The notes under the pieces: model-generated
What the model was told of the DNA's origin: nothing
The model's database searches: none
Seen by the model: only the letters and a program-made list of their open reading frames with translations
Shown here: piece after piece, positions 1 through 13,984 of the stretch
Layout of the letters: every line of letters begins with the position of its first letter
Position numbering within the stretch: the stretch's first letter is position 1
Origin: a virus
Lineage: Duplodnaviria; Heunggongvirae; Uroviricota; Caudoviricetes
IMG/VR virus record: IMGVR_UViG_2703718856_000007
Span: 1-13,984 of that record
Reading direction: 5' to 3' (one strand)
DNA length: 13,984 bases
Made by a program: the position numbers and the translations under genes

Positions 1-1194
1 ATGATCACCGACACAAAGCTCAGGAAGGCGCTCGGCAAGAAAAGAGATGATATCGAGATTATTTCTGATTCGCACGGGCTCAACGCCAGAATCAGCCAGG
101 CCGGAAAAATATCATTTTTCTATCGGTATCGCTGGGCCGGTAAAGCGGTAAAACTCAATGTTGGTGATTATCCTGCAATGAGTATCACCCAGGCAAGAGA
201 GCGTCGCCAACAATTCAGAAACTGGTTAACTGAGGGACTGGATCCGCGAGAGCAGGTGAAGCTGGATAAGCAGACCCGACAGGAAGCGATGTCCGTTGCC
301 GAAGCGTTCAATTACTGGATTGAAAGGCACTGTATCGCTAACGGGCTAGTTAAAGTCGATTACTATCGCCAGGTGTTTGAGAAACATATCGCCGAACCGA
401 TGAAGAATGTCAAAGTCGATAACACAGCGAAAATGCACTGGATCAACGTCTTCGATTCTATAGAAAGCAGGGTGATGGCTCATTACATGCTTTCGCTGTG
501 CAAACGGGCGTTTAGGTTCTGCGTTAACAGAAGTGTGATCGCCTCAAACCCACTCGAGGGATTACTGCCATCTGATGTCGGGCAAAAGCCTAAAAAGAGA
601 ACTCGCAGGATGGACGATGACGATCTGCGCAAAATCTATCAGTGGTTGAAAAGCCATATGTCGATAGAGTCCGTTTTCCTGGTGAAATTTATTATGCTTA
701 CCGGATGCCGTACGGCTGAGATTCGACTTAGTGAGAGATCATGGTTTCGATTGGATGATAATGAGTGGGTCGTGCCTGCGGGCAGTTATAAAACTCGGGT
801 ACATATTAGAAGGGGACTCTCAGACGCCGCCGTTAACCTGGTCAGAAATCACCTCAAGAAAATAAACACCAATCACCTGGTGACTTCACAACGTAAAATT
901 GATGGCGGGATCAAAGATTCGCCCGTTCATTCACCTGTGGCATCCAATTACGCCCGTTCTATTTGGAATGGAACAGGTATGGCAGAGTGGTCGCTTCATG
1001 ATATGAGGCGGACGATAGCCACAAATCTCTCTGAGTTAGGTTGCCCGCCGCACGTAATTGAAAAGCTGCTCGGGCATCAGATGGTGGGGGTTATGGCGCA
1101 TTACAACCTTCATGACTATATCGATGATCAGAAACACTGGCTCCGCGTTTGGCAGAGCCATCTTGAAGAGATCATCGGAGAGCCCTTCAGTTAA
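1..1194 (+). CDS. int: Tyrosine recombinase / phage integrase (P4-type)
   Basis: 397-aa track ORF. N-terminus MITDTKLRK...FFYRYRW resembles the P4-type integrase N-terminal domain; C-terminus has the catalytic box [15 protein letters not shown]...LLGH...AHYNLHDY (H-x-x-R, H, Y) and TGCRTAE (box I Arg). The window starts at its ATG, so the true start could lie upstream. Confidence 0.85.
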
Positions 1195-1388
1195 TTTATC
1201 TTCTTTTTATCCTCCCACTCTTTGATTGACTCAGAGCGCCAGCGGTTAGGGTTGCCGGGCCAGTCAGGGGGTGGGAACGGGCATACGAAGCCCCGAGGCA
1301 TTGTGTCTGCACTTTGCCATGACCAAAGGGTTTTGCGTGAAATTTTGTAGCGACTGGTCAGGTCTGACGTTACCAAAATATCATCCAT
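1191..1388 (-). CDS. xis: Excisionase (lambda Xis-like)
   Basis: Motif TLWSW...[19 protein letters not shown] resembles the lambda Xis RWVRECRIFPPPVKDGREY region as I recall it. The ATG at 1388 (MDDILVTS...) is preceded by GGAGAGAG; the track ORF extends to a TTG at 1433. Stop codon overlaps the int stop, convergently. Confidence 0.6.
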
Positions 1389-1429
1389 AGCTCTCTCCAG
1401 TTGCCCGTTCGGGCCATTCAAAATCTTTT

Positions 1430-1672
1430 TCAACCAACCTGCCCGGGCAGGGAGCGGAGACGGCGCATGCCGGTCATCGCTGTGGCCACGTAGCTCGCCT
1501 TTCGGTTCACCACCTCCACCCAGACTTTCACGCCTTCAACCTTCACCGTATAAGTCTCTTTCATCTTGCTTCGCCCATAGTCGCCATATGTTTGCAAGTG
1601 AGCTGCCAGCGCGATGTCGCATGCTTGGCGAGCTAAAGGTGATTGCTTACTTCCTCGATTGATCAGTCGCAT
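1430..1672 (-). CDS. Hypothetical phage protein
   Basis: 80-aa ORF with a strong SD (AAGGAG, 7 nt before ATG), co-oriented in the recE-recT operon; no family recognised. Confidence 0.5.
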   Translation of the reverse strand: MRLINRGSKQSPLARQACDIALAAHLQTYGDYGRSKMKETYTVKVEGVKVWVEVVNRKASYVATAMTGMRRLRSLPGQVG

Positions 1673-1710
1673 ATAATCTCCTTGAGGGAGGGTTACCCCT
1701 CCCGGTCTCG

Positions 1711-2829
1711 TCAGGCCACGTATTCCGGTTTCATATCCGCCAGGGTGATGCTGAATTGATCGTGCAGTTCATCGCCTAAGTGACGCTTTGAAGATGCAAG
1801 CATGCGCTCGGCTTCAGCGAACCGTTCGGCTGCATGCGGCTCGTCGGGCTGGGGCAGGGATTTAATAGCCTCCTCAACCTTGTTGCGTGCATCCACTAGG
1901 TAATAACGCTTTACGGCTTTGTTTTTCAGCTCGGTGAATAGTGCGGATCCCAGCGTAGCTTTCGCCGTTTCAATGTCGGCACGCAGCGATTTGGCGCTAT
2001 CCACGTCCTGAGCAGATTCGATGCGTTCGCGGAAATCATCGGCAAGAGAGTCGACATTTACCGACGATTCCTGTGCGCTTTGCGTGGTTGTGACGGTGTC
2101 ACCTGAGATATCAGCCAGGCTAACGCGTTGCGGCGTTGGGTTGATCTCTTTTTCTGTGCGCTGTTCAATCTCATCAGGGGTGTACACACCAAGAACAACT
2201 GCAGGGCAATATAGGCGCGCCCAGTATTTGAGTGCCAGATAAGCGATCTGCTGTTTCGGGTTTGATACCCAAAGTGGAGAATTACGTGTGATTACGCTGG
2301 AGAGGAAAACAGGCTCTCCCCAGGTGATATCACTTTCACCGCGAATAACGGCACCTACCCGTACCGACAGTCCTTGTTCATCAGCACTTTCCCAACCGCG
2401 TACCATTTCTTTCTTGTCGTACGTCCCGCCACCTTTCGCAGGCTTTTTAACGGTTATCTCGCGGCTGCTGGCACATTTCGACCAGTCGCCCTCGTACTCA
2501 TAGTGAAAGCGGCCAACGATGGCGTTTGAGCTGGAGATCACCGCATTAACCAGTTGCGCTTCGTATCCCAGGACACCGTTAACCAGGTGCGTCTTTTGCG
2601 CCACGGCGTAAGGGTTCATACCCCACTGCATCGCCTGCATGATGATGGCCATGCAGTCTGCCGGATTGCCGCGGAGGTGCTCAGGCACCGTTACGGCTGC
2701 CTGTGCCATCAACCCGGCGACAGACTGAAGCTGGGTTAAAGCCTGCACGTTGAAAATGGCATTGCTGGCTGAGATCGTGTTTGGAGTCTGCTGTTCAGCG
2801 GTTACGATATTCGTGTTTTCCATCATCAT
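1711..2829 (-). CDS. recT: RecT/Redbeta-family single-strand annealing protein with a long C-terminal extension
   Basis: 372-aa ORF immediately downstream of recE. N-terminal CMAIIMQAMQWGMNPY matches the RecT-type helix pattern (MSFVSAIVQCSQLGLEPG in E. coli RecT, from memory); IAYLALKYWARLYCPAVVLG parallels RecT AIRRLFKYLPVSIEI. Three consecutive ATGs at the start; the first is taken. Confidence 0.65.
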   Translation of the reverse strand: MMMENTNIVTAEQQTPNTISASNAIFNVQALTQLQSVAGLMAQAAVTVPEHLRGNPADCMAIIMQAMQWGMNPYAVAQKTHLVNGVLGYEAQLVNAVISSSNAIVGRFHYEYEGDWSKCASSREITVKKPAKGGGTYDKKEMVRGWESADEQGLSVRVGAVIRGESDITWGEPVFLSSVITRNSPLWVSNPKQQIAYLALKYWARLYCPAVVLGVYTPDEIEQRTEKEINPTPQRVSLADISGDTVTTTQSAQESSVNVDSLADDFRERIESAQDVDSAKSLRADIETAKATLGSALFTELKNKAVKRYYLVDARNKVEEAIKSLPQPDEPHAAERFAEAERMLASSKRHLGDELHDQFSITLADMKPEYVA

Positions 2830-2834
2830 TCCCC

Positions 2835-5800
2835 TTATGCCTGAGTACGCAGCGCTTCAAGGCGGCGCAGGTCGAAGTCGTTCAGTTCGTCGGTGTAGTC
2901 AGCAGTGATTGGCGCTGGCCATTCACCTGTGTCGAATCCGGTTGCGATATTGCGCATCGCTTTGCGGTACTCGAGCATACCCAGCTCCAGTAGTTCAGCG
3001 GATGCCTCGATGATGGCGATCCAGTGGTAGTTCTCGTCTTTGTTGACGAAAATCCAGAAGAACTGATCCAGCGCTGCGGTTTCGCAGTACATAGCCGCGC
3101 TCAGGTGATAATCACGTTCAATAATTTCCCGGTGTAGCCTGGCGCGCAGGCTTTCCTGCTTAACATTCCACATGCTGATGGTTTTCAGGTCTGCACCTAT
3201 ACGCACGCCATCCAGGTCGATCTCAAGGTCAGGGCGCACACGAACTTCCAAGCCCGTCTCCTCGTCAAAACCAAAGTAGCTCACCTCAACGGCTCGGCTA
3301 GGGTGGGTCAGCAGCATGCCGGCGGTCGGGTGTGCCAGAAGCGCTTTTTGAATATTCAGCGCGGTGCTCAGCTGCTGGCGGGTGACCAGCACTTTTCCTT
3401 CCGGGTTATCGCGCCAGGCATCCAGCAGTTCGTCGGCAAATACGGCATCTGGTTTGACTGCCTTCACGGCCTGGATCATGTCTGCTTTGGTACCGGACAC
3501 TTTCAGTGGTGCCGGTTTCTGTGCTTCCTGAGCCACAAGGTCAGGGTTGATGATTGCCAACTGCTCCAGCAGCGCGTCACGGCTGCCGCTGGTTTTAACC
3601 GGCGGCGGCAGGGTGGCGTTGTACTCTTTAATGCATGCCTTCATTGCCGTCGCCGTCTGCTTCTGGTCACCATCAATACGCTGGAAGTCAGCTGGCAGCG
3701 CCATATAGTTCTGTGCCGTTTCTTCCAGGTTAGCGCCAAGCGGAACCTGCGGCGGCAGGGTGGCGTTGTACTCTTCCAGTAACACCTTGATGTTGTCGGC
3801 AGACAGCAGCGCCGGCAGGCTGGCATTGTGCTCATCGATAAAGGCGCGCAGGGTCGCGGCCGTTGTGAATGCGCCTTCAGGGATCACCGGTTCAACGCTG
3901 AATTCTGCGTCCAGTAGTTCAGGCTGCAACGCCAGCGCATGCACCAAGTTGCCCATGTCCAGCACCGCTGAGCGCTCTTTGACGATGGTTTTCTCTACGT
4001 GGCGCGCATTGAAGTACATCAGCGAAACGCGCGCATCTTTCACCTGGGTTGAGCTGATGCCGTTGGCGGCGTGGTAAACCTCGTTTGGCAGCCCTTCATA
4101 GCGGCCTGGCTCGAAATAAGCGGGATAAACAACAGCTGGTTCGTCAGATTGCGCTTCTGGCTCGGTTTGTGCTGCAACTGGTTCGGTTTGGCTTACAGAA
4201 TCGCTATTTTTGGCGACAGAATCCGTATTCTGGTCTACATCGTCCTTCTGGCTGGTATCTGACTCTTCACCAGACTCCAGACTGCTTTCGCCTGGCTGTA
4301 CTTCATCACCAGCTTGTTTTTCATCACTGACAGTTTCTTGAACCTGCACATTGCTGGTGGTCTCCGTAGCCTTTTTCGTGCCATGAGTTGCTGAGTTCTG
4401 CAGCAAAGCCGTAACGTCGAATATTCCGTTGCCGACATTTTTAACCAGTTCTTGTTCGACTTTCTGCGGTTGTGCTGCCGCTTCCTCTGCGCGGCGGCGT
4501 GCTCCTTCTTCACGCACGCGTTGCAGGTTCTCTTCGTGAGTGCAGAAGGATTTGCGCGGAGACTCCTTACCTTCAGGTTGGGGAATTTCCTGTGCTGCGG
4601 GTTCAGTCTCATGCAACGGCAATAACTCGACCGCGGAATTGAACGCGGCTGTCATGGTCTGGTTAACAAATTCCAGGTGAGCGACAGGAGTTAAATGAAT
4701 ATTTTCCGGTGCGATACGTACCAGGTTAAAAATAGCCGTGCGGTTAACACCCAGAACGCCTGGCTGATTGCGCAGGATGTTGCTCCATGATTTCCATGGT
4801 TCTTCTTTTTTGGTCACGATTTCTTTAGCGCGACGAAGAATGCTGCCCGGGATCTCGAAGTGGTTGAAGTCCATAGGCAGAAGGGCACACGCAATCTCTA
4901 AATCGAGAGTGTCCAGTGTGTGGTGTGCGTCAGGTCCACGGTCAGTGACGTAACCGCCGTCGGCATTAGTGCCGGAATCAGTACGCTGCACACTACTGAT
5001 GCGATTACCGGCGGCCCATTCGCGAACGAGGATACCGCGGTCGATGTGATCTGTAGCGAACCACAATTTCAAAAACTGGATTAAGGTTGCGAGTTCAGGG
5101 ATTTTTCCATCGACAGGGAAGACTTTCTTAACGGCATTCACGACTTTATGAATATCGTGCTCAATGGCTTTTTTGAATGCTTCCACATTCTCAGCTGCCA
5201 GCAGCAGGTTCTGGACGTACGCGTCATCGGTGTCCATCTCAAGGCGGACAATCTCATTTTTCTGCCCTGCGTCGATGTGATAGAGATATTCACCATCACC
5301 GATGAACTGAGCCAGTACGCGCTGGCGGAATGGCAGGGTGGCAACAACGATCAGGTTCGGTTGCTGTGTCTGCTGGGATTGCTCTTCGGTATCGACTTCA
5401 CCATCAACGACGCCACCTTCTGCCCGGCCGTTCTCGTCGGTCTGGATACCGTCCTCAACAGTGAGATCTTGACCCGTTGTAACGTCAGCAGCGTTGCTGG
5501 TTTCAGTTTTGAGCAACTGCAACTTACCACTGCGCCAGTCTTCTACCAGTTGATTGCGGTCACCGGCATCGGTGTTCACCCAGTCAGACATGAATGCAGC
5601 GATCAATCTTGGTTCGTGCTCTTCGTCTGGTGTGAAAATGTCCTTAACCGCCCGAATCATTTTCCACTCAGCATTCAGGCTGAGTTTGGCGGTCGCGGGC
5701 ACATCGTTCCTTGCCACAAGCAGGCTATGGAGATATGTATTGCCTTCATCCAGTGACATTTCGCTGGCAGCCAACTGCTGCTCTTTAGTGACGTGGGTTT

Positions 5801-6224
5801 GGTATTTATCGTTCATCAGATGGACGGCAAAGCGGACCGCTGGAGTACGGTTTTCAACCGGGACAATTTCGGACGCAGTCGCATCTTCAACGATTACGGT
5901 CGGAGTAGGTGTGTAGGGGGCGTCAACGGAACCAGTAGACACACCAGCGGCTTTTGGCAGCCAGGTGCGCCCATCGTCCTGAAGCTCGTAGCGATCACAC
6001 CAGGTAAAATCAACTTCACCTTCTTTCGGCAGGCCGTCGACAACTGGGAAATCAGTGCGAATCGGTTTGGCGTAGTCCTTACCCCGACCTGTTTCGATAC
6101 CTGCATCTTCCAGCGCAACATCCAGCATCAGATTGGCGCGAGCCTCGGTTTTAGCAGTGAACCAGACCACTGCATCTTGCTTTCCGGATTTCTGAGTGGC
6201 TTTAACCACATTAAAGAATTCCAT
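2835..6224 (-). CDS. recE: Exonuclease VIII (RecE-like), large 1129-aa form
   Basis: N-terminal DFPVVDGLPKEGEVDFTWCDRYEL and REWAAGNRISSVQRTDSGTNADGGYVTDRG closely parallel E. coli Rac RecE motifs (NFPVVNDLPAEGEIDFTW..., [30 protein letters not shown]) as recalled. C-terminal nuclease-like region ends ...GEWP. RBS GAGGAT upstream of the ATG at 6224. Confidence 0.85.
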   Translation of the reverse strand: MEFFNVVKATQKSGKQDAVVWFTAKTEARANLMLDVALEDAGIETGRGKDYAKPIRTDFPVVDGLPKEGEVDFTWCDRYELQDDGRTWLPKAAGVSTGSVDAPYTPTPTVIVEDATASEIVPVENRTPAVRFAVHLMNDKYQTHVTKEQQLAASEMSLDEGNTYLHSLLVARNDVPATAKLSLNAEWKMIRAVKDIFTPDEEHEPRLIAAFMSDWVNTDAGDRNQLVEDWRSGKLQLLKTETSNAADVTTGQDLTVEDGIQTDENGRAEGGVVDGEVDTEEQSQQTQQPNLIVVATLPFRQRVLAQFIGDGEYLYHIDAGQKNEIVRLEMDTDDAYVQNLLLAAENVEAFKKAIEHDIHKVVNAVKKVFPVDGKIPELATLIQFLKLWFATDHIDRGILVREWAAGNRISSVQRTDSGTNADGGYVTDRGPDAHHTLDTLDLEIACALLPMDFNHFEIPGSILRRAKEIVTKKEEPWKSWSNILRNQPGVLGVNRTAIFNLVRIAPENIHLTPVAHLEFVNQTMTAAFNSAVELLPLHETEPAAQEIPQPEGKESPRKSFCTHEENLQRVREEGARRRAEEAAAQPQKVEQELVKNVGNGIFDVTALLQNSATHGTKKATETTSNVQVQETVSDEKQAGDEVQPGESSLESGEESDTSQKDDVDQNTDSVAKNSDSVSQTEPVAAQTEPEAQSDEPAVVYPAYFEPGRYEGLPNEVYHAANGISSTQVKDARVSLMYFNARHVEKTIVKERSAVLDMGNLVHALALQPELLDAEFSVEPVIPEGAFTTAATLRAFIDEHNASLPALLSADNIKVLLEEYNATLPPQVPLGANLEETAQNYMALPADFQRIDGDQKQTATAMKACIKEYNATLPPPVKTSGSRDALLEQLAIINPDLVAQEAQKPAPLKVSGTKADMIQAVKAVKPDAVFADELLDAWRDNPEGKVLVTRQQLSTALNIQKALLAHPTAGMLLTHPSRAVEVSYFGFDEETGLEVRVRPDLEIDLDGVRIGADLKTISMWNVKQESLRARLHREIIERDYHLSAAMYCETAALDQFFWIFVNKDENYHWIAIIEASAELLELGMLEYRKAMRNIATGFDTGEWPAPITADYTDELNDFDLRRLEALRTQA
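3604..3837. repeat. Internal 147-bp-period direct repeats within recE
   Basis: 26-bp identical segments at ~3604-3629 and ~3751-3776 (cggcggcagggtggcgttgtactctt), plus a degenerate third copy at ~3811-3837. On the minus strand they encode three EYNATLPP/EHNASLPA motifs spaced 49 codons apart. Confidence 0.6.
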
Positions 6225-6363
6225 GTGAGATCCTCATTTTTGGGTGTTAGAATCCCCGGACCATTGATAGCGCCCATTGGGTTAACTTTGGTTTTAATGT
6301 TGTTTCCGGTGTAACTTTGGTCGGTACCACCAGACGTAGATCCCGCCTTGCGCGGGTTTTACG

Positions 6364-6525
6364 TTAGCCTTCGTGAGCCATCTGGTCGTGCGAAGCGCAA
6401 CGTTTGGAGCAATACTCTTTTTCTTTGCGCGCCAGCTGTGAGCCGTTGCGATAGAGAAGGGTGCTCTTGATTACTTCCTCCGTTTTAACCGGCTTGCCGC
6501 AATATCCGCATTTCTTGTCTAACAT
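6364..6525 (-). CDS. Small zinc-ribbon-like protein (53 aa; CxxC...CxxxC), not in ORF track
   Basis: Manual translation: MLDKKCGYCGKPVKTEEVIKSTLLYRNGSQLARKEKEYCSKRCASHDQMAHEG. Strong SD GGAGGA 4-5 nt upstream of the ATG. Sits between the upstream small gene (stop 6537) and recE, co-oriented. Confidence 0.5.
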   Translation of the reverse strand: MLDKKCGYCGKPVKTEEVIKSTLLYRNGSQLARKEKEYCSKRCASHDQMAHEG

Positions 6526-6536
6526 GACATCCTCCG

Positions 6537-6743
6537 CTAGTGGCTGAGTCCATGCCCCAACCCGTTCAGATAAACTTCAACCAGCAAGTCGGTTGTGTAA
6601 GTCCGCTCAATCCCACGATGCAGATACAGGCGGCCGCGTTTATTTGCTGATGCTGTCCAGGTGCTTTCCCGATGCTTAACGAGCATCCCTGGGAGAACGG
6701 CGCCGCGGTTAACAGTCTGTGTCCCGTAATGATGACTAACCAT
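6537..6743 (-). CDS. Hypothetical small protein (about 68 aa)
   Basis: Track ORF 6537..6803 trimmed to the internal ATG at 6743 (MVSHHYGTQ...), which has a G-rich SD-like stretch and overlaps the stop of the upstream ORF (ATGGTTAG), suggesting translational coupling. Weak. Confidence 0.3.
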   Translation of the reverse strand: MVSHHYGTQTVNRGAVLPGMLVKHRESTWTASANKRGRLYLHRGIERTYTTDLLVEVYLNGLGHGLSH

Positions 6744-6924
6744 TGAACACCCCCGTGAAATGCATAATTTCGACAGCCAGGCCAGCCCAGAAAACCACAC
6801 CAATGGCCAGCGCGATAACCAGTGAGCGAATGCCGTTTCTGCTCATACCGCACCCCAGCACTGAACGCTTACGAATGCGACCAAAGCCAACAACAGAGCC
6901 ACCTTCACCTTGAATCTGTTCCAC
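6736..6924 (-). CDS. Hypothetical small membrane protein, first gene of the leftward operon
   Basis: 62-aa track ORF with a GTG start and GAGG about 7 nt upstream. Contains one hydrophobic segment (LVIALAIGVVFWAGLAVEI). An internal ATG at ~6846 would give a 36-aa version. Weak. Confidence 0.3.
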   Translation of the reverse strand: MEQIQGEGGSVVGFGRIRKRSVLGCGMSRNGIRSLVIALAIGVVFWAGLAVEIMHFTGVFNG

Positions 6925-7021
6925 GCAGGAACCTCATGTTCGCGGATCATCTCTTCACCTTTGCCTTATCGCGGCTAACGGGACGTTTTGACTTCACCCC
7001 GGCGTTGCCGGTGTTGTTTGG

Positions 7022-7110
7022 ATGAGATGATAATAGCAATGAGTATTAACCATAGCAATACGTATTGTTATTATTTGATAGCTATTGCTATTAAATCATT
7101 GATAGCTAAA
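7022..7110 (-). promoter_or_regulatory. OL/PL-like early-left promoter with repressor operator repeats
   Basis: AT-rich region with repeated TAGCAAT/ATTGCTA half-sites, including the perfect 12-bp palindrome CAATACGTATTG (~7054-7065). Minus-strand -35 TTGCTA (7053-7058), 17-bp spacer, -10 TATTAT (7030-7035). The same hexamers and operator motifs recur at the cI-cro intergenic region. Confidence 0.45.
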
Positions 7111-7170
7111 TGAATTTATTTTTTCCTATTGTGCTGTTATGCTCAAAAAAACGCCAAAAAGGGTAGCGCC

Positions 7171-7374
7171 ATGTCGAATGAGGATGAGTTTTTCGCAGAG
7201 ATGCACCCGCAGATTGCGCAGGTCATCGGGATAGCGGTTATGCAGCTGCTGGTTGAGAGGCGCGAGCCATCAAGAGAGGCGCTGATAGAGATGATTCAGG
7301 TGCTGTGGCAGGGTGACCAGGTAGATCTGGCAGTAGAGCTGGCACTGGATGTGCTGATGCTGAGGGAAGAGTAG
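7171..7374 (+). CDS. Small acidic hypothetical protein (67 aa)
   Basis: MSNEDEFFAEMHPQIAQVIGIAVMQLLVERREPSREALIEMIQVLWQGDQVDLAVELALDVLMLREE. GC-rich codon third positions typical of host-adapted coding sequence; AAGGG about 8 nt before the ATG. The track's TTG start at 7129 is less likely. Confidence 0.55.
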   Translation: MSNEDEFFAEMHPQIAQVIGIAVMQLLVERREPSREALIEMIQVLWQGDQVDLAVELALDVLMLREE

Positions 7375-7383
7375 GGCAGTAAC

Positions 7384-7405
7384 AACCCGGCGCGGTGGCC
7401 GGGTT
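7384..7405. terminator. Stem-loop between convergent genes (8-bp perfect stem AACCCGGC / GCCGGGTT, 6-nt loop)
   Basis: Seen directly in sequence. Lies between the stop of the 7171..7374 ORF (+) and the stop of the 7414..8331 ORF (-). No U-tract on either strand, so function as an intrinsic terminator is uncertain. Confidence 0.3.
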
Positions 7406-7413
7406 AACGTCTA

Positions 7414-8331
7414 CTACCAGTTCGGTAGCTCACGCAAAGAATACTTAGGCTTTCCATTACCTACCTGAGTGCAGAGGAATTTTGCAATAACTTTTTCTCC
7501 GCGGTGATCGTTGATAATGTCTGGATTGTCTATGTAATTACTGATTTTCGCTACAAAAATTGATTTAGATTCATCATGCTCCATAATAAACTCGCATTGA
7601 CGTTTATGAGGAAGAGCTCCCAAGAAGCTAACTTCTAATAACTGCAAATCTTCTTTAACACTATCTTTACTTAGCTTGAGGACCGCTCTTTCAATATCAT
7701 TGATATTGTTTGCAACAAGCGCTTGGTTGTTATGCCTTAAAGTAAAAGTTGCTTTGTTATCAAATAGTATTTGTATAAATCCACGTATTTTATCTAAAGC
7801 TCGGTCATCCAAATCACTAATCGCCTCAGCTAGACCATCATCGTCTCCCCTTATACTCATTTGCAGGATAGATTGAGTCTGGTTCAGAGCTTTTTGAACA
7901 GAAGATTCCTCATCAAAGTTAAGCGGGGCATCTGGCCTAAATTCCTCAAGTGTAAATCCAAAAGAACCTTTGGCTGTTCCAGTAATCATAAGCAAATTAT
8001 TTTCAAGATTTGGAATTTTACCTTTGGCCGGTAATTTCCCTGAAAATGAAGATGCAACATGAGAAACCGCATCATTAAAGGCGTTAACTATTTTGGTTCC
8101 GAAATTTGCAGCTATGCCATATGTACCAAGTACAGGGGCTCCTCTGAATGTTAAAGTGGCTTTAACTGGCGGATGCTCATCGATAACAATATGAGAAATC
8201 TCATCATTTAGCTCATGGAGCCTGCTTTCAAGGCTCATTTTGCCAATAATGTCATCATCAGTAGTGGTTTCTAAAAGAGACAGGATTGAGTCCCGCTCAC
8301 TTAGAACGAACAAGTAATCGTCGCGATTCAT
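7414..8331 (-). CDS. Hypothetical protein B of AT-rich cassette (305 aa), unknown family
   Basis: Long track ORF in a low-GC segment; start ATG overlaps the stop of upstream gene A by 4 nt (ATGA). Hydrophilic, no transmembrane segment, no Walker motif; no family recognised. Confidence 0.75.
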   Translation of the reverse strand: MNRDDYLFVLSERDSILSLLETTTDDDIIGKMSLESRLHELNDEISHIVIDEHPPVKATLTFRGAPVLGTYGIAANFGTKIVNAFNDAVSHVASSFSGKLPAKGKIPNLENNLLMITGTAKGSFGFTLEEFRPDAPLNFDEESSVQKALNQTQSILQMSIRGDDDGLAEAISDLDDRALDKIRGFIQILFDNKATFTLRHNNQALVANNINDIERAVLKLSKDSVKEDLQLLEVSFLGALPHKRQCEFIMEHDESKSIFVAKISNYIDNPDIINDHRGEKVIAKFLCTQVGNGKPKYSLRELPNW

Positions 8332-8915
8332 TGCTCACCTCCTTCTGATAGCATTGTTTCTAAAATGGTTAATGCCTGTTGATCCAGTGTAATATCTAGA
8401 GGAATCTGCAAGAATCCCTTCCATGTAAGATCCCTTCTATGAGACCACATACTGTACCAATATACAGTCCTTTCTACAAGCTGCTCCTTAGAAACGCCCA
8501 GTGACTGGAAGTAAGAATCAACTCTAAACTCTTGCTTTCTCCACTTACCCATATGTGGCACAAACAGATTCGGGTTACGCATAACGACATCTTGCTGCGT
8601 TTCGTTAAACGCCAAATTAAAAAAAGTCACAACATCAATGTCATTTGGCGGACGTTTTTCAATGAGTTCAACATCTTCTATGAAACTACCATCGATCCAT
8701 TGAAAACCATCCGTTAACCCAGTTTTATTAATTTCTTTACGAAATTTGATGAAACCGAGTAAGATCTCGATCCTTTGTGGGCTTGTAGCGTACCGCTCTA
8801 CAAATTTTAATATATCTGTCTTATATGGGGAGCGATAGGCGCTGGTTGGATGCTCCATATCCATTGGTGGGATTACACCAATTTCATTCCAGTTAGGAAT
8901 TTCCTGAATCACCAT
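8328..8915 (-). CDS. Hypothetical protein A of AT-rich cassette (195 aa), possible minimal nucleotidyltransferase-like motif
   Basis: Track ORF with AAGG about 8 nt before the ATG. Candidate own promoter on the minus strand: -35 TTGAAA (8963-8968), 17-bp spacer, -10 TACAAC (8940-8945). Motif WIDGSF-x14-DIDVV is reminiscent of the GS...DxD nucleotidyltransferase signature, though the spacing is atypical. Confidence 0.75.
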   Translation of the reverse strand: MVIQEIPNWNEIGVIPPMDMEHPTSAYRSPYKTDILKFVERYATSPQRIEILLGFIKFRKEINKTGLTDGFQWIDGSFIEDVELIEKRPPNDIDVVTFFNLAFNETQQDVVMRNPNLFVPHMGKWRKQEFRVDSYFQSLGVSKEQLVERTVYWYSMWSHRRDLTWKGFLQIPLDITLDQQALTILETMLSEGGEQ

Positions 8916-9187
8916 GCTGTGGCCTTAAATTTCTTATTGGTTGTAAGAAAAAATGTCATTATTTTCAATGGAGTCATTGATTTTTTTATCGCTTTATCAA
9001 TATGACTTCTCTCGCTCGCTTAATCAGAGCCTTTCTCTGAAATTTCATCAGGGATCGCATAAAATTATTGTTTGCCTCATTCACTGCGCGAGCGAAGCCT
9101 TTCCTTCATTTACTTCTCGTACATGTTATCTAGCCTTCCGCCTGAGTCGTAAATATACAATCATTCCCTGTTGTTTTAGGTGGCTTC

Positions 9188-9217
9188 TTATCCATGCTTC
9201 CTGTACGTCTTCGGCAT
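9188..9217 (-). repeat. Duplicated remnant of the cI 3' end (encodes MPKTYRKHG-stop)
   Basis: 9192-9217 matches 9395-9420 (the real cI terminus, MPQTYRKHG-stop) at 25 of 26 bp, with the stop codon conserved at the same offset; direct repeat 203 bp apart. Confidence 0.5.
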
Positions 9218-9248
9218 TACCAAAAACACATCGAACTACCGGTCTGGC

Positions 9249-9368
9249 TCACTCAAAGTCATCCCGCTCATCCTTCCGCTTGAAGAAAACTTTATCCAGC
9301 CTGAGCACTATCCCAACCAGTCCGATAATCAGCAAAGTAATGAGTATTGGGATAATCAGATCAGACAT
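9249..9368 (-). CDS. Small membrane peptide (39 aa), not in ORF track
   Basis: Manual translation: MSDLIIPILITLLIIGLVGIVLRLDKVFFKRKDERDDFE, an N-terminal hydrophobic helix followed by a charged tail. SD GAGGAAG just upstream of the ATG at 9368. An in-frame ATG at 9398 overlapping the cI stop would give 49 aa. Lies 23 bp downstream of cI, co-oriented. Confidence 0.4.
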   Translation of the reverse strand: MSDLIIPILITLLIIGLVGIVLRLDKVFFKRKDERDDFE

Positions 9369-9390
9369 GCTTCCTCTGCGTGCTAAGGCT

Positions 9391-10089
9391 TTACCCATGC
9401 TTCCTGTACGTCTGCGGCATGCTGCCGATCACCTTGCCGAACACGAAAACACGATTCATTTCGTCTTTCTCGATCGGGTCCCAGGCTGCATAGCTCTTGT
9501 TATCTGAGATAACCAGCAGCTTGTCCTTCATCTTCTGCAGGCGCTTGACGTGAGCAGTGTCGTCGTACAGGAAGGCGTATATCCCGTCGCCGTCGAAGCT
9601 CTTAACGCTGATGTCGACGAACAGCAGATCACCCGGCTCAATCGTGCCGGACATGCTGTCACCCCGGACGTTGATGATCCGGATGTTCTCAGCCTTACGC
9701 CCATCGAACATGTGCCGGGCTTCAGCTGGCTCATACTCAACAGAACGGAGAATCTCGACGAACTCCTGGTTCACGATGCCCGGCCCGGCACTAACCATAA
9801 GGTCCAGCACATCAATCCTGAATGCATCAGTATCCTGGCTTTTAACCTGGGCAGCGCGAGGGAGCTGGCCGTCATCGCGCATCGGTCCATTTCCGGTTGA
9901 TAACCATTCAGACCTGACGCCCAAAGCATTAGCTATCTCGACAATTTTTGTTGAACCCCTGGCGTTTCCACTCACCAGGCGCCAAATGGTTGGCTGAGCA
10001 ATACCTGAGGCCTTCGCAAGCGCCCCTTGTGACATTCCAGCCGAAGCCATGGCCTCGTTTAAACGATCTGCAAGAGTTTCTTTTTTCAT
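9391..10089 (-). CDS. cI: Phage repressor cI-like (HTH plus S24 LexA-type peptidase domain)
   Basis: N-terminal HTH (MSQGALAKASGIAQPTIWRLVSGN); C-terminal S24 autoprotease motifs (GDSM serine, HVKRL lysine; Ala-Gly site in MVSAGPG). Start taken at ATG 10089 (MKKETLADR...), with the candidate PRM -10 immediately upstream, i.e. near-leaderless like lambda cI; the track's 10152 start would overlap the operators. Confidence 0.9.
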   Translation of the reverse strand: MKKETLADRLNEAMASAGMSQGALAKASGIAQPTIWRLVSGNARGSTKIVEIANALGVRSEWLSTGNGPMRDDGQLPRAAQVKSQDTDAFRIDVLDLMVSAGPGIVNQEFVEILRSVEYEPAEARHMFDGRKAENIRIINVRGDSMSGTIEPGDLLFVDISVKSFDGDGIYAFLYDDTAHVKRLQKMKDKLLVISDNKSYAAWDPIEKDEMNRVFVFGKVIGSMPQTYRKHG

Positions 10090-10094
10090 AATCT

Positions 10095-10170
10095 CAAATT
10101 TATACGCTTGCGTATTACTGGTCAAAACACGTTTTGCTATTGCTAAAACCAATACGCATTGCTATTATCA
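10095..10170. promoter_or_regulatory. OR-like divergent promoter/operator region (PRM leftward, PR rightward)
   Basis: PR candidate on plus strand: -35 TTGCTA (10140-10145), 17-bp spacer, -10 TATTAT (10163-10168). PRM candidate on minus strand: -35 TTGACC (10120-10125), -10 TATAAA (10099-10104). Inverted repeats TACGCttGCGTA and CAATACGCATTGCTATT share half-sites with the 7022-7110 region. Confidence 0.5.
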
Positions 10171-10200
10171 TTTTGCACCAATACTTATAGGAATTGGAAC

Positions 10201-10428
10201 ATGACGAACAAAACCATCCAGAAGGCAATTGATATCGCTGGCAGTCAGAAAAAATTGGCCGATCTGTGTGGCGTAGCGCAGCCGACAGTTTGGCGCTGGC
10301 TGCATGGCGGCGGAATTGACGCTCGCTATGTAATGAAAATCGTGTCTGCGACCAACGGCAAGATTAAGGCGGCAGAGATCAGGCCTGACCTTGCTCAGTT
10401 GCTGAGCGCGCATTCACCGGCCGCCTAA
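10201..10428 (+). CDS. cro: Cro-like HTH transcriptional regulator
   Basis: Small ORF divergent from cI with HTH QKKLADLCGVAQPTVWRW. Start taken at ATG 10201 with AGGA about 9 nt upstream; the track's 10159 start lies inside the promoter. Confidence 0.75.
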   Translation: MTNKTIQKAIDIAGSQKKLADLCGVAQPTVWRWLHGGGIDARYVMKIVSATNGKIKAAEIRPDLAQLLSAHSPAA

Positions 10429-10468
10429 CCAGCGGCCATTCCAAACAACACCAGAGGAAGTATCACAA

Positions 10469-10690
10469 ATGGAGAGTTCAACGACACGCAACAAAGTGGA
10501 GGCTCGCAGGATAGAAAGCTGGTTACACAGCCAGATAGCTGAACTGGGAACCACGAATATCGCCAAAGTGGCCGGAGTGAATAAGTCGACGGTGAGTCGC
10601 TGGCGGGAAAGTCTGCTGCCGAACATGTCGCTGCTGCTGGCCATCCTGATTTCTAACAGGCCGGGAGAGAAAGGTGATTTTGAAGCATGA
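10469..10690 (+). CDS. cII: cII-like transcriptional activator
   Basis: RNKVEARRIESWLHSQIAELGTTNIAKVAGVNKSTVSRWRESLLPNMSLLLAIL parallels lambda cII (RNEALRIESALLNKIAMLGTEKTAEAVGVDKSQISRWKRDWIPKFSMLLAVL, from memory). SD AGAGGAAG upstream. Confidence 0.8.
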   Translation: MESSTTRNKVEARRIESWLHSQIAELGTTNIAKVAGVNKSTVSRWRESLLPNMSLLLAILISNRPGEKGDFEA

Positions 10691-10775
10691 GTGGGAACAG
10701 AAAGGCGAAAGCCGCAGTGCAGCAACACTAACGGCTTTCTACGCGAATTAACTGGATCAATTCACAGGAGTAATT

Positions 10776-11630
10776 ATGGCAAATACTGCCGAGGTAATCA
10801 ATTTCCCTGTGCCTGTCGTGGCACTACAGGAGCTGCGCGTGGCAGATCTCGACGATGGGTTTACGCGCATCGCCAATGAGCTCCTTGAAGCTGTCATGCG
10901 TGCGGGTCTGTCGCAGCATCAGCTTTTGGTGTTCATGGCTGTCATGCGCAAAACATACGGCTTCAACAAGAAATCTGACTGGGTCAGTAACGAGCAGCTC
11001 TCGGAGCTGACCGGCATTCTCCCGCATAAGTGCTCAGCTGCAAAAAGCGTCCTGGTTAAGCGGGGGATATTAACTCAAACCGGTCGTGTTATCGGGATTA
11101 ATAAAACGGTCAGCGAATGGTCATCTTTACCCGTAAAAGGTAAAGAAAAAAAACCTTACCTGAAAAAGGTAACATTACCCGAATCAGGTAAGAAAAGTTT
11201 ACCCGAATCAGGTAACGCCTATTACCCGAATCAGGTAAACACAAAAGACAAACATACAAAAGACAATAAAGACAATATTAATAACCCCCCTAAATCCCCC
11301 CGGGCGGTTTCGTTCGATGCGTTAGCTGTTCAGTTGCCTGACTGGCTTTCTGCAGAAATCTGGTCGTCATGGGTGGCATATCGTCGCGACCTGAAAAAGC
11401 CGATCAAGTCTCAGCAGACGGTCACCCAGGCTATCAACCTGCTGGACCGCTGCAGACTGAACGGTTACGCGCCCGAAGAAATTATCAACCGCAGCATCGC
11501 CAATGGCTGGCAAGGCCTGTTTGAGCCAAATGGTGCCAAGCCTCAACCAAGTCAACAGGTGCGAGTTGCCGAAAATTTCGCAGGGAAGGATTACGGGCAG
11601 ACTGAAATCCCATCATGGGCGAGGGACTGA
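10776..11630 (+). CDS. O: Replication initiation protein O-like
   Basis: N-terminal VADLDDGFTRIANELLEA...MRKTYGFNKK...NEQLSELTGILPHKCSAAKSVLVKRG...INKTVSEW parallels lambda O (VADLDDGYARLSNMLLEA...LRKTYGWNKP...). Iterons are embedded mid-gene, as in ori-lambda. Confidence 0.85.
   Translation: MANTAEVINFPVPVVALQELRVADLDDGFTRIANELLEAVMRAGLSQHQLLVFMAVMRKTYGFNKKSDWVSNEQLSELTGILPHKCSAAKSVLVKRGILTQTGRVIGINKTVSEWSSLPVKGKEKKPYLKKVTLPESGKKSLPESGNAYYPNQVNTKDKHTKDNKDNINNPPKSPRAVSFDALAVQLPDWLSAEIWSSWVAYRRDLKKPIKSQQTVTQAINLLDRCRLNGYAPEEIINRSIANGWQGLFEPNGAKPQPSQQVRVAENFAGKDYGQTEIPSWARD
11127..11285. repeat. Origin of replication: five 17-bp iterons (TTACC-N7-GGTAA) followed by an AT-rich tract
   Basis: Iterons at ~11127, 11156, 11175, 11199 and 11222; three are identical (TTACCCGAATCAGGTAA). 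An A-rich unwinding-like tract follows at 11239-11285 (acaaaagacaaacatacaaaagacaataaagacaatattaataa). Confidence 0.6.
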
Positions 11631-11632
11631 TC

Positions 11633-12484
11633 ATGGAACTGGAAGAAAAAATCACTGCCATTGAGCGGATGCTTGATCAGCTGAGTAAGCCACCGGAAGA
11701 CATCCCGAATTGCGAGGTGGTTATCGAGCGCGTCTGTTGTGAAAAGCATGGCGAGTATGAGCAGCGCAAGCGGATCCTGACCAGCAGCATCATCAATCTG
11801 CCATCACCGCCGACACGCTGCCCGGGCTGCCTGGAAGACGAACTGAATTTTCTGAAGGATGAAAAGGTTCGCTGGGATAAGCGAGTTCGCCAGCAAACTG
11901 CAGAAAGGCTGCTTCGCCAGCTGGATATACCAGAGCGATTCTCCACGTGCACTCTGGACAGCTACAAGCCTGTTGGGAAGGATTCTGAGCGAGCATTACG
12001 GGTCTGCCAGGCCTACGCATCGAAATGGACTGATCGCCTCCAGCAGGGAGGTGGGTTGGTTATGTGTGGCAAGCCTGGTACCGGTAAAAACCACCTTGCG
12101 CTGGCCATTGCCCGCCATGTGATTGAGCACCACCAAAGCTCAGTCATTTTCACGACGGCGCTCAAGATTGCCCGGGAGTTTAAATCGACCTGGTCAAAAA
12201 CAGCCACGCGCACTGAGGATGAGGTGATCAGCTACTTCACGAAGCCAGACCTTCTGATTGTCGATGAGGTTGGTGTGCAGTTTGGCAGCGAAGCCGAGAA
12301 GATGATCATGTTTGAAATCATCAACACCCGCTACGAGCGCCTGAAGCCGACGATCCTGATCAGCAACCTGCCGAAGGATGAGCTGACGCAGTTTATCGGC
12401 GAGCGCGTCATCGACCGCATGAACGACGGCGGAGGCTGCACGATTTCGTTTACCTGGGACAGCTATCGGGAGAACAGGTCATGA
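11633..12484 (+). CDS. dnaC: DnaC-like helicase loader (IstB-like AAA+ ATPase)
   Basis: Walker A GKPGTGKNHLALAIA and Walker B LLIVDEVG; sits in the P-equivalent position after O. Start taken at ATG 11633 (MELEEK...) with GAGGGA upstream; the track's 11615 start overlaps the O 3' end. Confidence 0.85.
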   Translation: MELEEKITAIERMLDQLSKPPEDIPNCEVVIERVCCEKHGEYEQRKRILTSSIINLPSPPTRCPGCLEDELNFLKDEKVRWDKRVRQQTAERLLRQLDIPERFSTCTLDSYKPVGKDSERALRVCQAYASKWTDRLQQGGGLVMCGKPGTGKNHLALAIARHVIEHHQSSVIFTTALKIAREFKSTWSKTATRTEDEVISYFTKPDLLIVDEVGVQFGSEAEKMIMFEIINTRYERLKPTILISNLPKDELTQFIGERVIDRMNDGGGCTISFTWDSYRENRS

Positions 12485-12774
12485 CAGGCAAAGACGCAAT
12501 TCTGAACTACCTGAAAACGCATAAAACCTGTAGCTCTCCAGATGTCGCCGCGGCTTCCGGGATGACGCATACCTGCATCAACCAGGCTGCAAATATCCTG
12601 GCAAAGCAAGGGGTGCTGGTAGCTGAAGCTCGGGTGTGGCGGACGGTTTACTACCGGCTGGCTACTGAAGAAGAAATTTCAGGCAGGAAGAGCACCAATC
12701 AGATTTTCAACGAGTGTCGGCAAAGCCCGGCGATGAAACGGGTACTGGCTGTTTACGGGAGAACATCAGCATGA
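12481..12774 (+). CDS. Hypothetical protein, Ren-like by position and size
   Basis: 97-aa ORF overlapping the dnaC-like stop by 4 nt (ATGA), as lambda ren overlaps P; size matches Ren (~96 aa). I cannot verify sequence identity from memory. Confidence 0.5.
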   Translation: MTGKDAILNYLKTHKTCSSPDVAAASGMTHTCINQAANILAKQGVLVAEARVWRTVYYRLATEEEISGRKSTNQIFNECRQSPAMKRVLAVYGRTSA

Positions 12775-13211
12775 CTATCACACTACAGGCAGTAAACGAG
12801 CTCATCGCCACCCTGGAGAGCGCAGGCGAGCTGTCGATCAGAGAGCAGAAGTTCCTGAAGCTGGCGAAAGCGTACCAGCAGCTGGCTGCGGAGAATGTGG
12901 AGGCAAAAAAAATAATCAGCGAATGCCGGGAGTATTTCATCGCTGGGGTGATGAACCGTATCAGACCAACGAATGAAGGATACCTGCATATGATTTGCGA
13001 CACGTTTGCAGACGAAACCCCAGCAACCGATCGCATCGTAGCCGGGATTAAGGCTGATGGGGTGGATGAGTTCGTATCCAACGCCGTGCATAAGATTTTT
13101 GATGAAAGCGGAGCAGTGTCAGCTTTGGCTTACCTTTCGCTCGCTAATTCATACGTGAAGCAACTGCGCGAGGGGGCGACAAATGACCAAGTCAACCATA
13201 ACCAGAGATGA
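12771..13211 (+). CDS. Hypothetical nin-region protein (146 aa)
   Basis: Start ATG 12771 (MTITLQAVNEL...) overlaps the upstream stop (ATGA), with GGGAGA about 9 nt upstream; the track's 12714 start is less likely. No family recognised. Confidence 0.5.
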   Translation: MTITLQAVNELIATLESAGELSIREQKFLKLAKAYQQLAAENVEAKKIISECREYFIAGVMNRIRPTNEGYLHMICDTFADETPATDRIVAGIKADGVDEFVSNAVHKIFDESGAVSALAYLSLANSYVKQLREGATNDQVNHNQR

Positions 13212-13752
13212 GCTTAACGAAGTGATTGCCACATACGGAAAGCACCACATTGCTCATCGAATGGCTAATGTATTGTTGGCCGCAATGGACAGCGAGCCAG
13301 ATTGCAAGGAAAGAAAACTTTTCTGTTCAACCGATACGACCAGAATGAGAAAGACAATCTCTGTCTCTGCTGGGACCGAGGATGCGCCGCTATATCGCCA
13401 CGCGCAGCAGCCGGTAAATAGCGAGCCAGTAGGATACCTTTTCCATAACGAATACGGTGTGGTTTTATACTCAATTTCCGATGATGCTACCGAGGGATTC
13501 TCGCTAATTGGGCCAATATACTCCGTACCGCAGCCAGCGCCGGTAGTGCCTGGTAAATGGATTCCGGTAAGCGAGCAGATGCCGGAAGACCGCACGCAGG
13601 TAATTCTATGGGATGCTGAAATTGGAGAAGTAACAAGCGGTCACTACAGCCATAAAACACATACTTTTTATCATTGCGGCGATGCCATCGAAAACGAGAT
13701 AACCCACTGGATGCCGACGCCAGCAGCTCCGCAGGAGATGAAAGGTGAATAA
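13183..13752 (+). CDS. DUF551-like phage protein
   Basis: C-terminal GKWIPVSEQMPEDRTQVILWD...GHYS...ITHWMPTPAAP resembles the DUF551 signature common in lambdoid nin regions (recalled). GAGGGGG about 7 nt before the ATG. Confidence 0.6.
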   Translation: MTKSTITRDELNEVIATYGKHHIAHRMANVLLAAMDSEPDCKERKLFCSTDTTRMRKTISVSAGTEDAPLYRHAQQPVNSEPVGYLFHNEYGVVLYSISDDATEGFSLIGPIYSVPQPAPVVPGKWIPVSEQMPEDRTQVILWDAEIGEVTSGHYSHKTHTFYHCGDAIENEITHWMPTPAAPQEMKGE

Positions 13753-13984
13753 AGCCGAACTATTGCAGAAGATATCAGCGCTCGCTACTGAATGCCACAC
13801 GCTGGCCTGTGATCTTGATATTGGTGATGAGCGAACCGAAATGTTCGAAATCTACGGCGTGCTGCACAATCTCGGTCGCCGCGGGTACGCCTGCCAGGTA
13901 GGGCGGCGCATGAATCCACTGCTCGCATCCTGCGATGACGACGAGGATGAGGAAGATGACGATTGGGATGAGGATGACGACTGA
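13745..13984 (+). CDS. Hypothetical protein with poly-acidic C-terminal tail
   Basis: 79-aa track ORF with GTG start overlapping the upstream stop; ends ...CDDDEDEEDDDWDEDDD-stop at the window edge. Confidence 0.45.
   Translation: MNKAELLQKISALATECHTLACDLDIGDERTEMFEIYGVLHNLGRRGYACQVGRRMNPLLASCDDDEDEEDDDWDEDDD

Follow-up and report, generated by a model that had tools for sequence, protein, structure and literature searches.

A 39-codon gene directly behind the cI repressor of lambdoid prophages encodes a predicted membrane micropeptide at the head of a variable defence hotspot

The locus considered here raises the question of whether a very small open reading frame (ORF) that directly follows a phage repressor gene is a gene in its own right, and what its product might then do for the prophage. 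It lies in a 13,984-nt stretch of a Caudoviricetes virus (IMG/VR record IMGVR_UViG_2703718856_000007, positions 1 to 13,984; the whole of this stretch is hereafter called the window), in which a 39-codon ORF follows the gene for a cI-type repressor. An earlier reading of the letters by a model (hereafter the original prediction) had proposed an unannotated gene for a 39-amino-acid (aa) membrane peptide. Translation, Kyte-Doolittle hydropathy and an AlphaFold model (helix 5-34) confirmed the hydrophobic helix and charged tail that it described, and the Shine-Dalgarno sequence GAGGAAG was found before the ATG as stated; the ORF also shares the strand of cI, while the gap between the cI stop codon (9393-9391) and the peptide gene measures 22 nt and not the 23 bp first given. 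Since the window contains 150 ORFs of at least 30 aa, the peptide ORF is unremarkable by size, and it is conservation that lifts it above chance.

Related loci were collected by searching IMG/VR contigs for the 18-mer GACGTACAGGAAGCATGG at the end of cI, which returned at least 120 stretches; these listed matches and additional annotated loci made up a comparison set of 126 loci, or 127 with the window. The peptide gene is carried by at least 42 of the 127 loci listed. All 41 complete copies are intact, each exactly 120 nt long, and they represent 21 distinct DNA sequences. Polymorphic sites among these copies are concentrated at third codon positions (21, against 5 at first and 4 at second positions; binomial p = 4.4e-5), and the variants comprise 21 synonymous and 12 non-synonymous changes on 28.3 and 88.7 sites, respectively, which corresponds to a ratio of ~0.18. 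The original prediction had left conservation in related prophages to be checked, and both the intact copies and the third-position bias bear it out. A further copy, in a Rac-like prophage of Klebsiella variicola, has 78% nucleotide and 74% amino-acid identity, with 54% of synonymous sites diverged (synonymous divergence dS 0.94, non-synonymous divergence dN 0.14, dN/dS 0.15). This copy retains the GCAGAGGAAG-N-ATG context (GAGGAAG-N-ATG) and has no in-frame ATG upstream, which together indicate that the 39-aa product is the conserved form. In four locus classes the DNA downstream of the gene has been replaced, and the replacement starts exactly at the peptide stop codon. Judged by these comparisons of alleles, the ORF is a true accessory gene that codes for a protein and is under purifying selection.

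The first 35 nt of the ORF (9334-9368) are identical across the 21 alleles, synonymous sites included; 21 of the remaining 28 third positions vary, versus none in this segment (hypergeometric p = 1.9e-5), and the K. variicola copy differs within it. Either a constraint at the nucleotide level in the initiation region or recombinational homogenisation beside the boundary repeat described below could account for this invariance. A structured RNA or riboswitch-like element was considered and ruled out, as the structure of the peptide mRNA region is not unusual (fold z = 0.18) and an Rfam search of 8700-10300 gave no match; the repeats and boundary motifs fold no better than their shuffles.

The predicted product is a peptide of 39 aa that spans the membrane once; it has a short N-terminus (MSD), a transmembrane (TM) helix over roughly residues 4-24 and, as its charged tail, DKVFFKRKDERDDFE. 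Mean Kyte-Doolittle hydropathy over residues 4-22 is 3.14, the hydrophobic segment spans 19-21 residues, and the AlphaFold2 model, built with the family alignment, consists of a single helix with a predicted local distance difference test score of 97 over residues 11-20. In the 25 family members compared, Pro7, Gly19 and most of the helix do not vary and Gly16 hardly does, and the variation in the tail is conservative (for example, K/R and D/E exchanges). Since the basic residues R23, K26, K30, R31, K32 and R35 all lie C-terminal of the TM segment, we infer from the positive-inside rule that the peptide inserts in the inner membrane N-out/C-in.

Searches for relatives of this product returned only its own kind. 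Pfam gave no match at E <= 10 except noise (DUF808, Endomucin, DUF3377), NCBIfam gave none for the 39-aa form at E <= 1, and the PHROG, PADLOC and PDB-sequence profiles gave nothing meaningful. An exhaustive profile search of 1.84 billion representative proteins produced 9 matches, all of them members of the same family or partial versions, and a word-indexed search produced 45 clusters, all at least 77% identical, from K. pneumoniae, K. aerogenes and E. coli, with a cluster member also recorded from K. michiganensis. A scan of 185,579 species-representative (GTDB) genomes with an exact 26-mer and a degenerate peptide found the peptide in none of them, and the gene is thus confined to strain-specific prophages. 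As far as these searches describe it, the family is a narrow orphan, a prophage accessory small membrane protein at a repressor-proximal hotspot.

At least 1000 contigs contain the exact peptide sequence, under no name but 'hypothetical' or 'uncharacterised' protein (UniRef A0A2H4TYS8_ECOLX). It is present in 10 of 5426 complete E. coli genomes and annotated by RefSeq in none of the 10; the Prokaryotic Genome Annotation Pipeline placed nothing over the peptide gene in records H39-H48 (e.g., NZ_CP163122.1, 2021140-2021281). Eight Klebsiella phage records contain it, four as a 'hypothetical protein', two with no annotation at that place and two without any annotation at all, and five Klebsiella 'plasmid' records carry the gene as well. 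The description of the gene as unannotated thus applies to RefSeq E. coli and fails for several GenBank records, in which it is a 'hypothetical protein' (such as XRT76168.1 and QBP28361.1). A full-text literature search for the peptide sequence found no paper, and keyword searches gave general context only.

What is conserved in the surroundings is the position of the gene, next after the repressor and at the start of a variable defence hotspot, and not a partnership with any cargo. When repressors are clustered at 90% identity the peptide gene lies behind at least eight clusters, and its presence is polymorphic inside clusters, 11 of the 21 loci with the window's own repressor cluster carrying it. 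The first large cargo ORFs form at least 38 clusters among the loci listed, of which the peptide precedes at least 17, and many of these clusters occur both with and without it; in viral contigs, the DUF6932-type cluster is found three times with the peptide and three times without. In Klebsiella phage ST101-KPC2phi6.1 the peptide gene precedes rexAB, between cI and rexA. Its place was held even behind an unrelated repressor in the K. variicola prophage, where the order is a RacR-like helix-turn-helix (HTH) repressor of 128 aa, a YoaK-family ORF of 32 aa, the peptide gene and a 478-aa AAA_15/21 ATPase. The cargo found at the hotspot includes RexAB, BstA, PDC-M63A/DUF6932, an HEC-04-like AAA ATPase, a HipA-like kinase and DUF7946/7947 proteins. 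In the window itself it consists of a 195-aa DUF6932 protein (PADLOC PDC-M63A, 2.7e-11; phrog_9194) whose gene overlaps by 4 nt that of a 305-aa protein (phrog_18731; no Pfam match). The two are a candidate defence pair, and they may share the peptide's transcript and yet form an independent module; G+C content is 0.43 in the peptide gene, 0.54 in cI and 0.39-0.40 in this cassette. The suggestion that the peptide belongs to the same accessory module as the low-G+C cassette is contradicted by loci that hold the cassette without the peptide (L004, L006 and others) and by the occurrence of the peptide with at least 17 cargo types. From this distribution, gain, loss and recombination of the peptide gene are tied neither to the repressor allele nor to the defence cargo downstream. 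Like a moron, the gene is found in some phage genomes and missing from others that are otherwise collinear, its filled and empty sites having the same flanks, and a consensus scan found around the ORF no promoter or terminator of its own, such as a moron in the strict sense would bring.

The gene is enclosed by 30-nt direct repeats that are derived from the 3' end of cI (Table 1). Copies 1 and 2 are separated by 203 nt, start to start, a spacing that recurs in at least 27 independent viral contigs, and copy 2 still translates as MPKTYRKHG followed by a stop. Behind some repressor alleles the motif is non-coding, with the repressor stop lying 27-34 nt upstream, which argues for a conserved boundary sequence and not just a coding end. 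At least 45 different sequences start after the 30-nt repeat among the 127 loci listed, the 18-mer used for the search being the core of the repeat. Empty sites are seen in E. coli KFu024 and SUISSEKPC3NDM5, where a single repeat is followed directly by the same DUF6932 cargo; this repeat is a hybrid, its 5' part resembling copy 1 and its 3' end and downstream flank matching copy 2. The empty site would be either the product of a crossover between the copies or the ancestral state. Lambdoid 'linker' boundary sequences are short conserved module junctions, presumed to be a substrate for homologous exchange. The repeat at the peptide gene resembles them in being a conserved junction beyond which gene content is highly mosaic, and differs in that the boundary is here duplicated around one micropeptide gene, with a degenerate third copy supplying the start of that gene; recombination at these repeats is proposed. 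The ATG within copy 2 opens a 21-codon ORF in the window, and in front of other cargos unrelated ORFs of ~10 codons; such an ORF is probably meaningless.

Table 1 Positions of the micropeptide gene and of other features in the window.
Feature	Position	Strand	Basis and remarks
Micropeptide gene, 39 codons	9249-9368	minus	ATG 9368-9366, TGA 9251-9249; product MSDLIIPILITLLIIGLVGIVLRLDKVFFKRKDERDDFE (translation)
Ribosome-binding site GAGGAAG	9376-9370	minus	1 nt from ATG; GAGG core 4 nt from ATG
cI-type repressor, 232 aa, HTH + Peptidase_S24	10089-9391	minus	Pfam; W21 RefSeq annotation; directly upstream of peptide gene
Boundary repeat copy 1, ATGCCGCAGACGTACAGGAAGCATGGGTAA	9391-9420	minus	Last nine cI codons (MPQTYRKHG) and stop; repeat search
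Degenerate third repeat copy	9361-9390	minus	63% identity; in tandem with copy 1; supplies AGGAAGCATG, the peptide ribosome-binding site and start codon
Boundary repeat copy 2, ATGCCGAAGACGTACAGGAAGCATGGATAA	9188-9217	minus	28/30 identical to copy 1; variable cargo starts right after
PRM-like promoter candidate TTGACC-17-TAAATT	10097-10125	minus	Consensus scan; upstream of cI; sole minus-strand promoter-like site in 8700-10400
Downstream cargo: DUF6932 protein (8915-8328) and 305-aa partner (8331-7414)	7414-8915	minus	~39-40% G+C; Pfam, PADLOC, PHROG
21-codon ORF from the ATG of copy 2, MDKKPPKTTGNDCIFTTQAEG	9130-9195	minus	
Conserved opposite-strand gene	7129-7374	plus	
RecE-like exonuclease, 1129 aa	1711-6224	minus	Exonuc_VIII N-terminus, PDDEXK-like C-terminus; followed by 372-aa RecT
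Tyrosine integrase	1-1194	plus	At window start

Neither the interval between cI and the peptide gene nor that between the peptide gene and the cargo contained a promoter-like or terminator-like site in a simple consensus scan. The proposal that the gene is co-transcribed with cI is therefore plausible, the two sharing a strand with no such site between them. In E. coli W21, which has an identical segment, the repressor is annotated as a helix-turn-helix regulator with cro/cII-like genes flanking it. The gene bstA is presumably under the repressor promoter, and the cI-N interval is a mosaic hotspot (PMC8585504). Because no promoter or terminator was detected in between, and because rexAB and bstA occupy the same place, the peptide is probably made in lysogens.

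The best explanation, to which we give a likelihood somewhat short of even, is that the gene encodes an autonomous membrane micropeptide of the repressor operon, expressed in lysogens and possibly acting as a superinfection-exclusion factor; the anti-phage cargo at the site (RexAB, BstA, PDC-M63A, HEC-04-like ATPase) provides supporting context. Under this explanation cI and the peptide gene would be transcribed together from the maintenance promoter, and during lysogenisation from the establishment promoter as well, and the peptide would be made in lysogens as are rexAB of lambda or bstA of BTP1 in the equivalent position. It would insert in the inner membrane in the orientation given above and act alone, without the neighbouring cassette. 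More speculatively, the lysogen would be protected at a membrane step of infection, through interference with DNA entry or with an inner-membrane host factor required by incoming phages, in the manner of HK97 gp15. The latter, a small prophage protein located in the inner membrane, prevents genome entry (PMC3594210). The likeness, which for the peptide is a predicted one, lies in a small prophage inner-membrane protein, accessory among lambdoid phages, that protects the lysogen while leaving outer-membrane receptors untouched (PMC3594210). The two have no sequence relation, however, and gp15 is an independent unit in the tail operon, whereas the peptide gene sits in the repressor operon without promoter-like or terminator-like sites of its own. 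With lambda rexAB and BTP1 bstA the peptide gene shares the niche downstream of cI and presumably the promoter (PMC8585504), BstA being an alternative cargo at the peptide site; RexA, RexB and BstA differ in that they are large and follow a sensor/effector logic, whereas the peptide is a single helix of 39 aa that is found with or without them.

Several points weigh against this explanation. The plus-strand frame antisense to the gene, which has the same wobble positions, gives 22 synonymous and 12 non-synonymous changes, so that substitution counts alone cannot pick the coding strand; the sense strand was assigned because its start, stop and ribosome-binding site are fixed, its product is hydrophobic and the antisense ORF is unstable. 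The latter (plus strand, 8953-9507, 184 aa) covers the 3' end of cI as well as the peptide gene with its two repeats, and was rejected as a gene and regarded as a shadow ORF, with a length of 35-218 aa and a variable N-terminus among loci. An in-frame ATG at 9398, overlapping the cI stop codon (ATGGGTAA), potentially yields a 49-aa form, which could have a basic N-terminus and a different topology; this form is possible in repeat-bearing loci and is disfavoured by the K. variicola copy, which lacks an upstream ATG. The family is shallow, its members mostly at least 85% identical, and its conservation is therefore partly recent common descent. A weak promoter could escape the consensus scan, given its simplicity. 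Finally, Pfam, PHROG, PADLOC and the exhaustive profile search revealed no homology to inner-membrane exclusion proteins (HK97 gp15/YebO, P22 SieA, T4 Imm).

The most serious rival, unlikely as we consider it, is that the peptide acts as a small regulator on some membrane protein of the host or the phage (a transporter, a sensor kinase or FtsH/HflKC, for example) and serves lysogenic conversion or the tuning of lysis and lysogeny and not exclusion. Regulatory micropeptides of E. coli include MgrB, AcrZ, MgtS and SgrT, and their architecture of one TM helix with a short cytoplasmic tail is that of the peptide; the likeness to the YoaK family (NF033821), MgrB, AcrZ and MgtS extends to a length of 30-50 aa and a short polar tail. 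The invariant Pro7 and Gly19 and near-invariant Gly16 within the helix suggest helix-helix packing, the peptide would be expressed whenever cI is, and genes of the named YoaK family of small membrane proteins occupy the same post-repressor position in related loci, one of them directly upstream of the K. variicola copy. Against such a role, there is no identifiable partner, profile searches found no homology to characterised micropeptides (the peptide does not match NF033821), and the hotspot mostly holds anti-phage cargo. A membrane-damaging toxin, either type I-like or an abortive-infection effector that depolarises the membrane when over-produced or released from control, is less probable still. 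The region does host the abortive-infection systems RexAB and BstA, and toxins of the Fst/Ldr/Hok type have a similar size, an N-terminal TM helix and a charged C-terminal tail; for the type I toxins (Hok/Gef, Ldr, Fst, TisB) this likeness in size, helix and tail is one of architecture only. The peptide differs from these, and from Ibs and ShoB, in having no family match, antisense RNA signal, promoter of its own or conserved flanks. It found no match in Pfam or NCBIfam, where type I toxin families would be expected; the consensus scan found no opposite-strand promoter-like site in the conserved module (9186-9420), and in the four locus classes already mentioned other DNA has taken the place of the 3' flank, from which a cis-antisense RNA would be initiated. 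The unexceptional folding and the lack of an Rfam match in the mRNA region point the same way, as does the lack of a constant partner gene that could be sensor or antidote, and an apparently constitutive lysogen operon with an accessible ribosome-binding site, with no separate promoter for the peptide, fits a potent toxin poorly. The type I toxin-like character that the original prediction entertained is thus unsupported, and so is a holin-like one: the gene lies in the immunity region, and in E. coli W21, with its identical segment, an HP1-family holin, lysozyme and Rz/Rz1 are encoded elsewhere.

It is also quite improbable that the peptide is without function, either because translation itself is what matters (for example, in blocking Rho-dependent polarity on the cargo) or because the gene is a recent hitch-hiker on a recombining boundary segment. 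In keeping with that view, the family is shallow and limited to Klebsiella-type lambdoid prophages, it is absent from all the GTDB species-representative genomes scanned, recombination-prone repeats flank the gene, and the invariance of its first 35 nt, synonymous sites included, favours nucleotide-level constraint or homogenisation over selection on the protein. The dN/dS of 0.15-0.18 and the nearly invariant TM residues nevertheless imply that the amino-acid sequence is selected and not merely an open frame; the K. variicola copy has kept its amino-acid identity in spite of its synonymous divergence, and identical cargo, as we read it, functions without the peptide in empty-site prophages. 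Hardly credible, in turn, is a role of the peptide as a subunit of the adjacent low-G+C cassette of DUF6932 and 305-aa proteins, a role for which the adjacency and the intermediate G+C of the peptide gene speak. The even division of the DUF6932-type cluster between contigs with and without the peptide counts against it, as do the empty sites of KFu024 and SUISSEKPC3NDM5, at which the cassette is present; the peptide also has rexAB and many unrelated cargos behind it, and a repeat copy and 272 nt (8916-9187) lie between the peptide gene and the cassette.

A wider form of the superinfection-exclusion explanation, which we regard as unlikely, would combine two claims: that the peptide founds a new family of repressor-operon micropeptides that exclude superinfecting phages at the inner membrane on their own, and that it is one element of an undescribed cassette array, in which recombination at short conserved boundary repeats reshuffles tiny single-TM genes (39-aa, YoaK-like, 23-, 25-, 27- and 33-aa) and larger defence cargos behind cI. 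The repeat-bounded layout suggests, together with the other micropeptide ORFs that recur in this position, that small membrane proteins have a niche at the start of the cI-proximal defence hotspot. Should lysogens make the peptide, the number of contigs with the exact sequence would place it among the frequent lysogen-expressed prophage products of K. pneumoniae, and standard annotation misses it. The susceptibility of a priority pathogen to phages is shaped by Klebsiella prophages, and a 39-aa exclusion or membrane-modulating factor, if it proves to be one, would be relevant to the prediction of host range in phage therapy. Nature also offers isogenic comparisons, in filled and empty alleles whose repressor and cargo are identical.

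Other tiny single-TM ORFs were seen in the first ~300 nt after the repeat in twelve loci of the comparison set, and also in locus L128 (3813-3911). The YoaK-family ORFs among them, of 32 aa, score 58.8-65.7 bits against NF033821 (cut-off 32), and further tiny ORFs after the repeat encode products of 23 aa (MREYLIVGVVTLLSVVAIVLMVA), 25 aa (MKEHFFNGLVALISVMAISLLIFHW), 33 aa (MRSLIFVLALIVIVAGICVFMLQDNALKGFSAW) and ~27 aa (ending in KYLVVIIAAILVALIVWQWVLDLG). Up to three such ORFs stand in tandem, and loci L035 and L101 have them downstream of the 39-aa gene. A second conserved boundary motif, GYAGCCAGCNAGTGGCCTGATGAGGTGTTTGGGTGAT, which follows the cI-end repeat without a gap, starts ~20 cargo classes and is absent from the window; with its end AGTGGCCTGATGAGGTGTTTGGGTGAT it is duplicated around the 23-aa ORF, and it contains CUGAUGAG. 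A hammerhead ribozyme, considered because CUGAUGAG is followed by CGAAAC at the start of several cargos, was rejected, as no Rfam hammerhead reached the gathering score in 15 loci and the spacing is non-canonical.

An opposite-strand conserved gene of 204 nt (WP_019725100.1, hypothetical; 12127-12330 in locus L001) closes the variable cargo region in several relatives, and may mark the other boundary of the hotspot; its place in the window is given in Table 1. The RecE-like exonuclease of the window is unusually long. E. coli W21, whose immunity region is otherwise identical, encodes Bet/Exo/Gam instead of RecE/RecT, which is another module swap.

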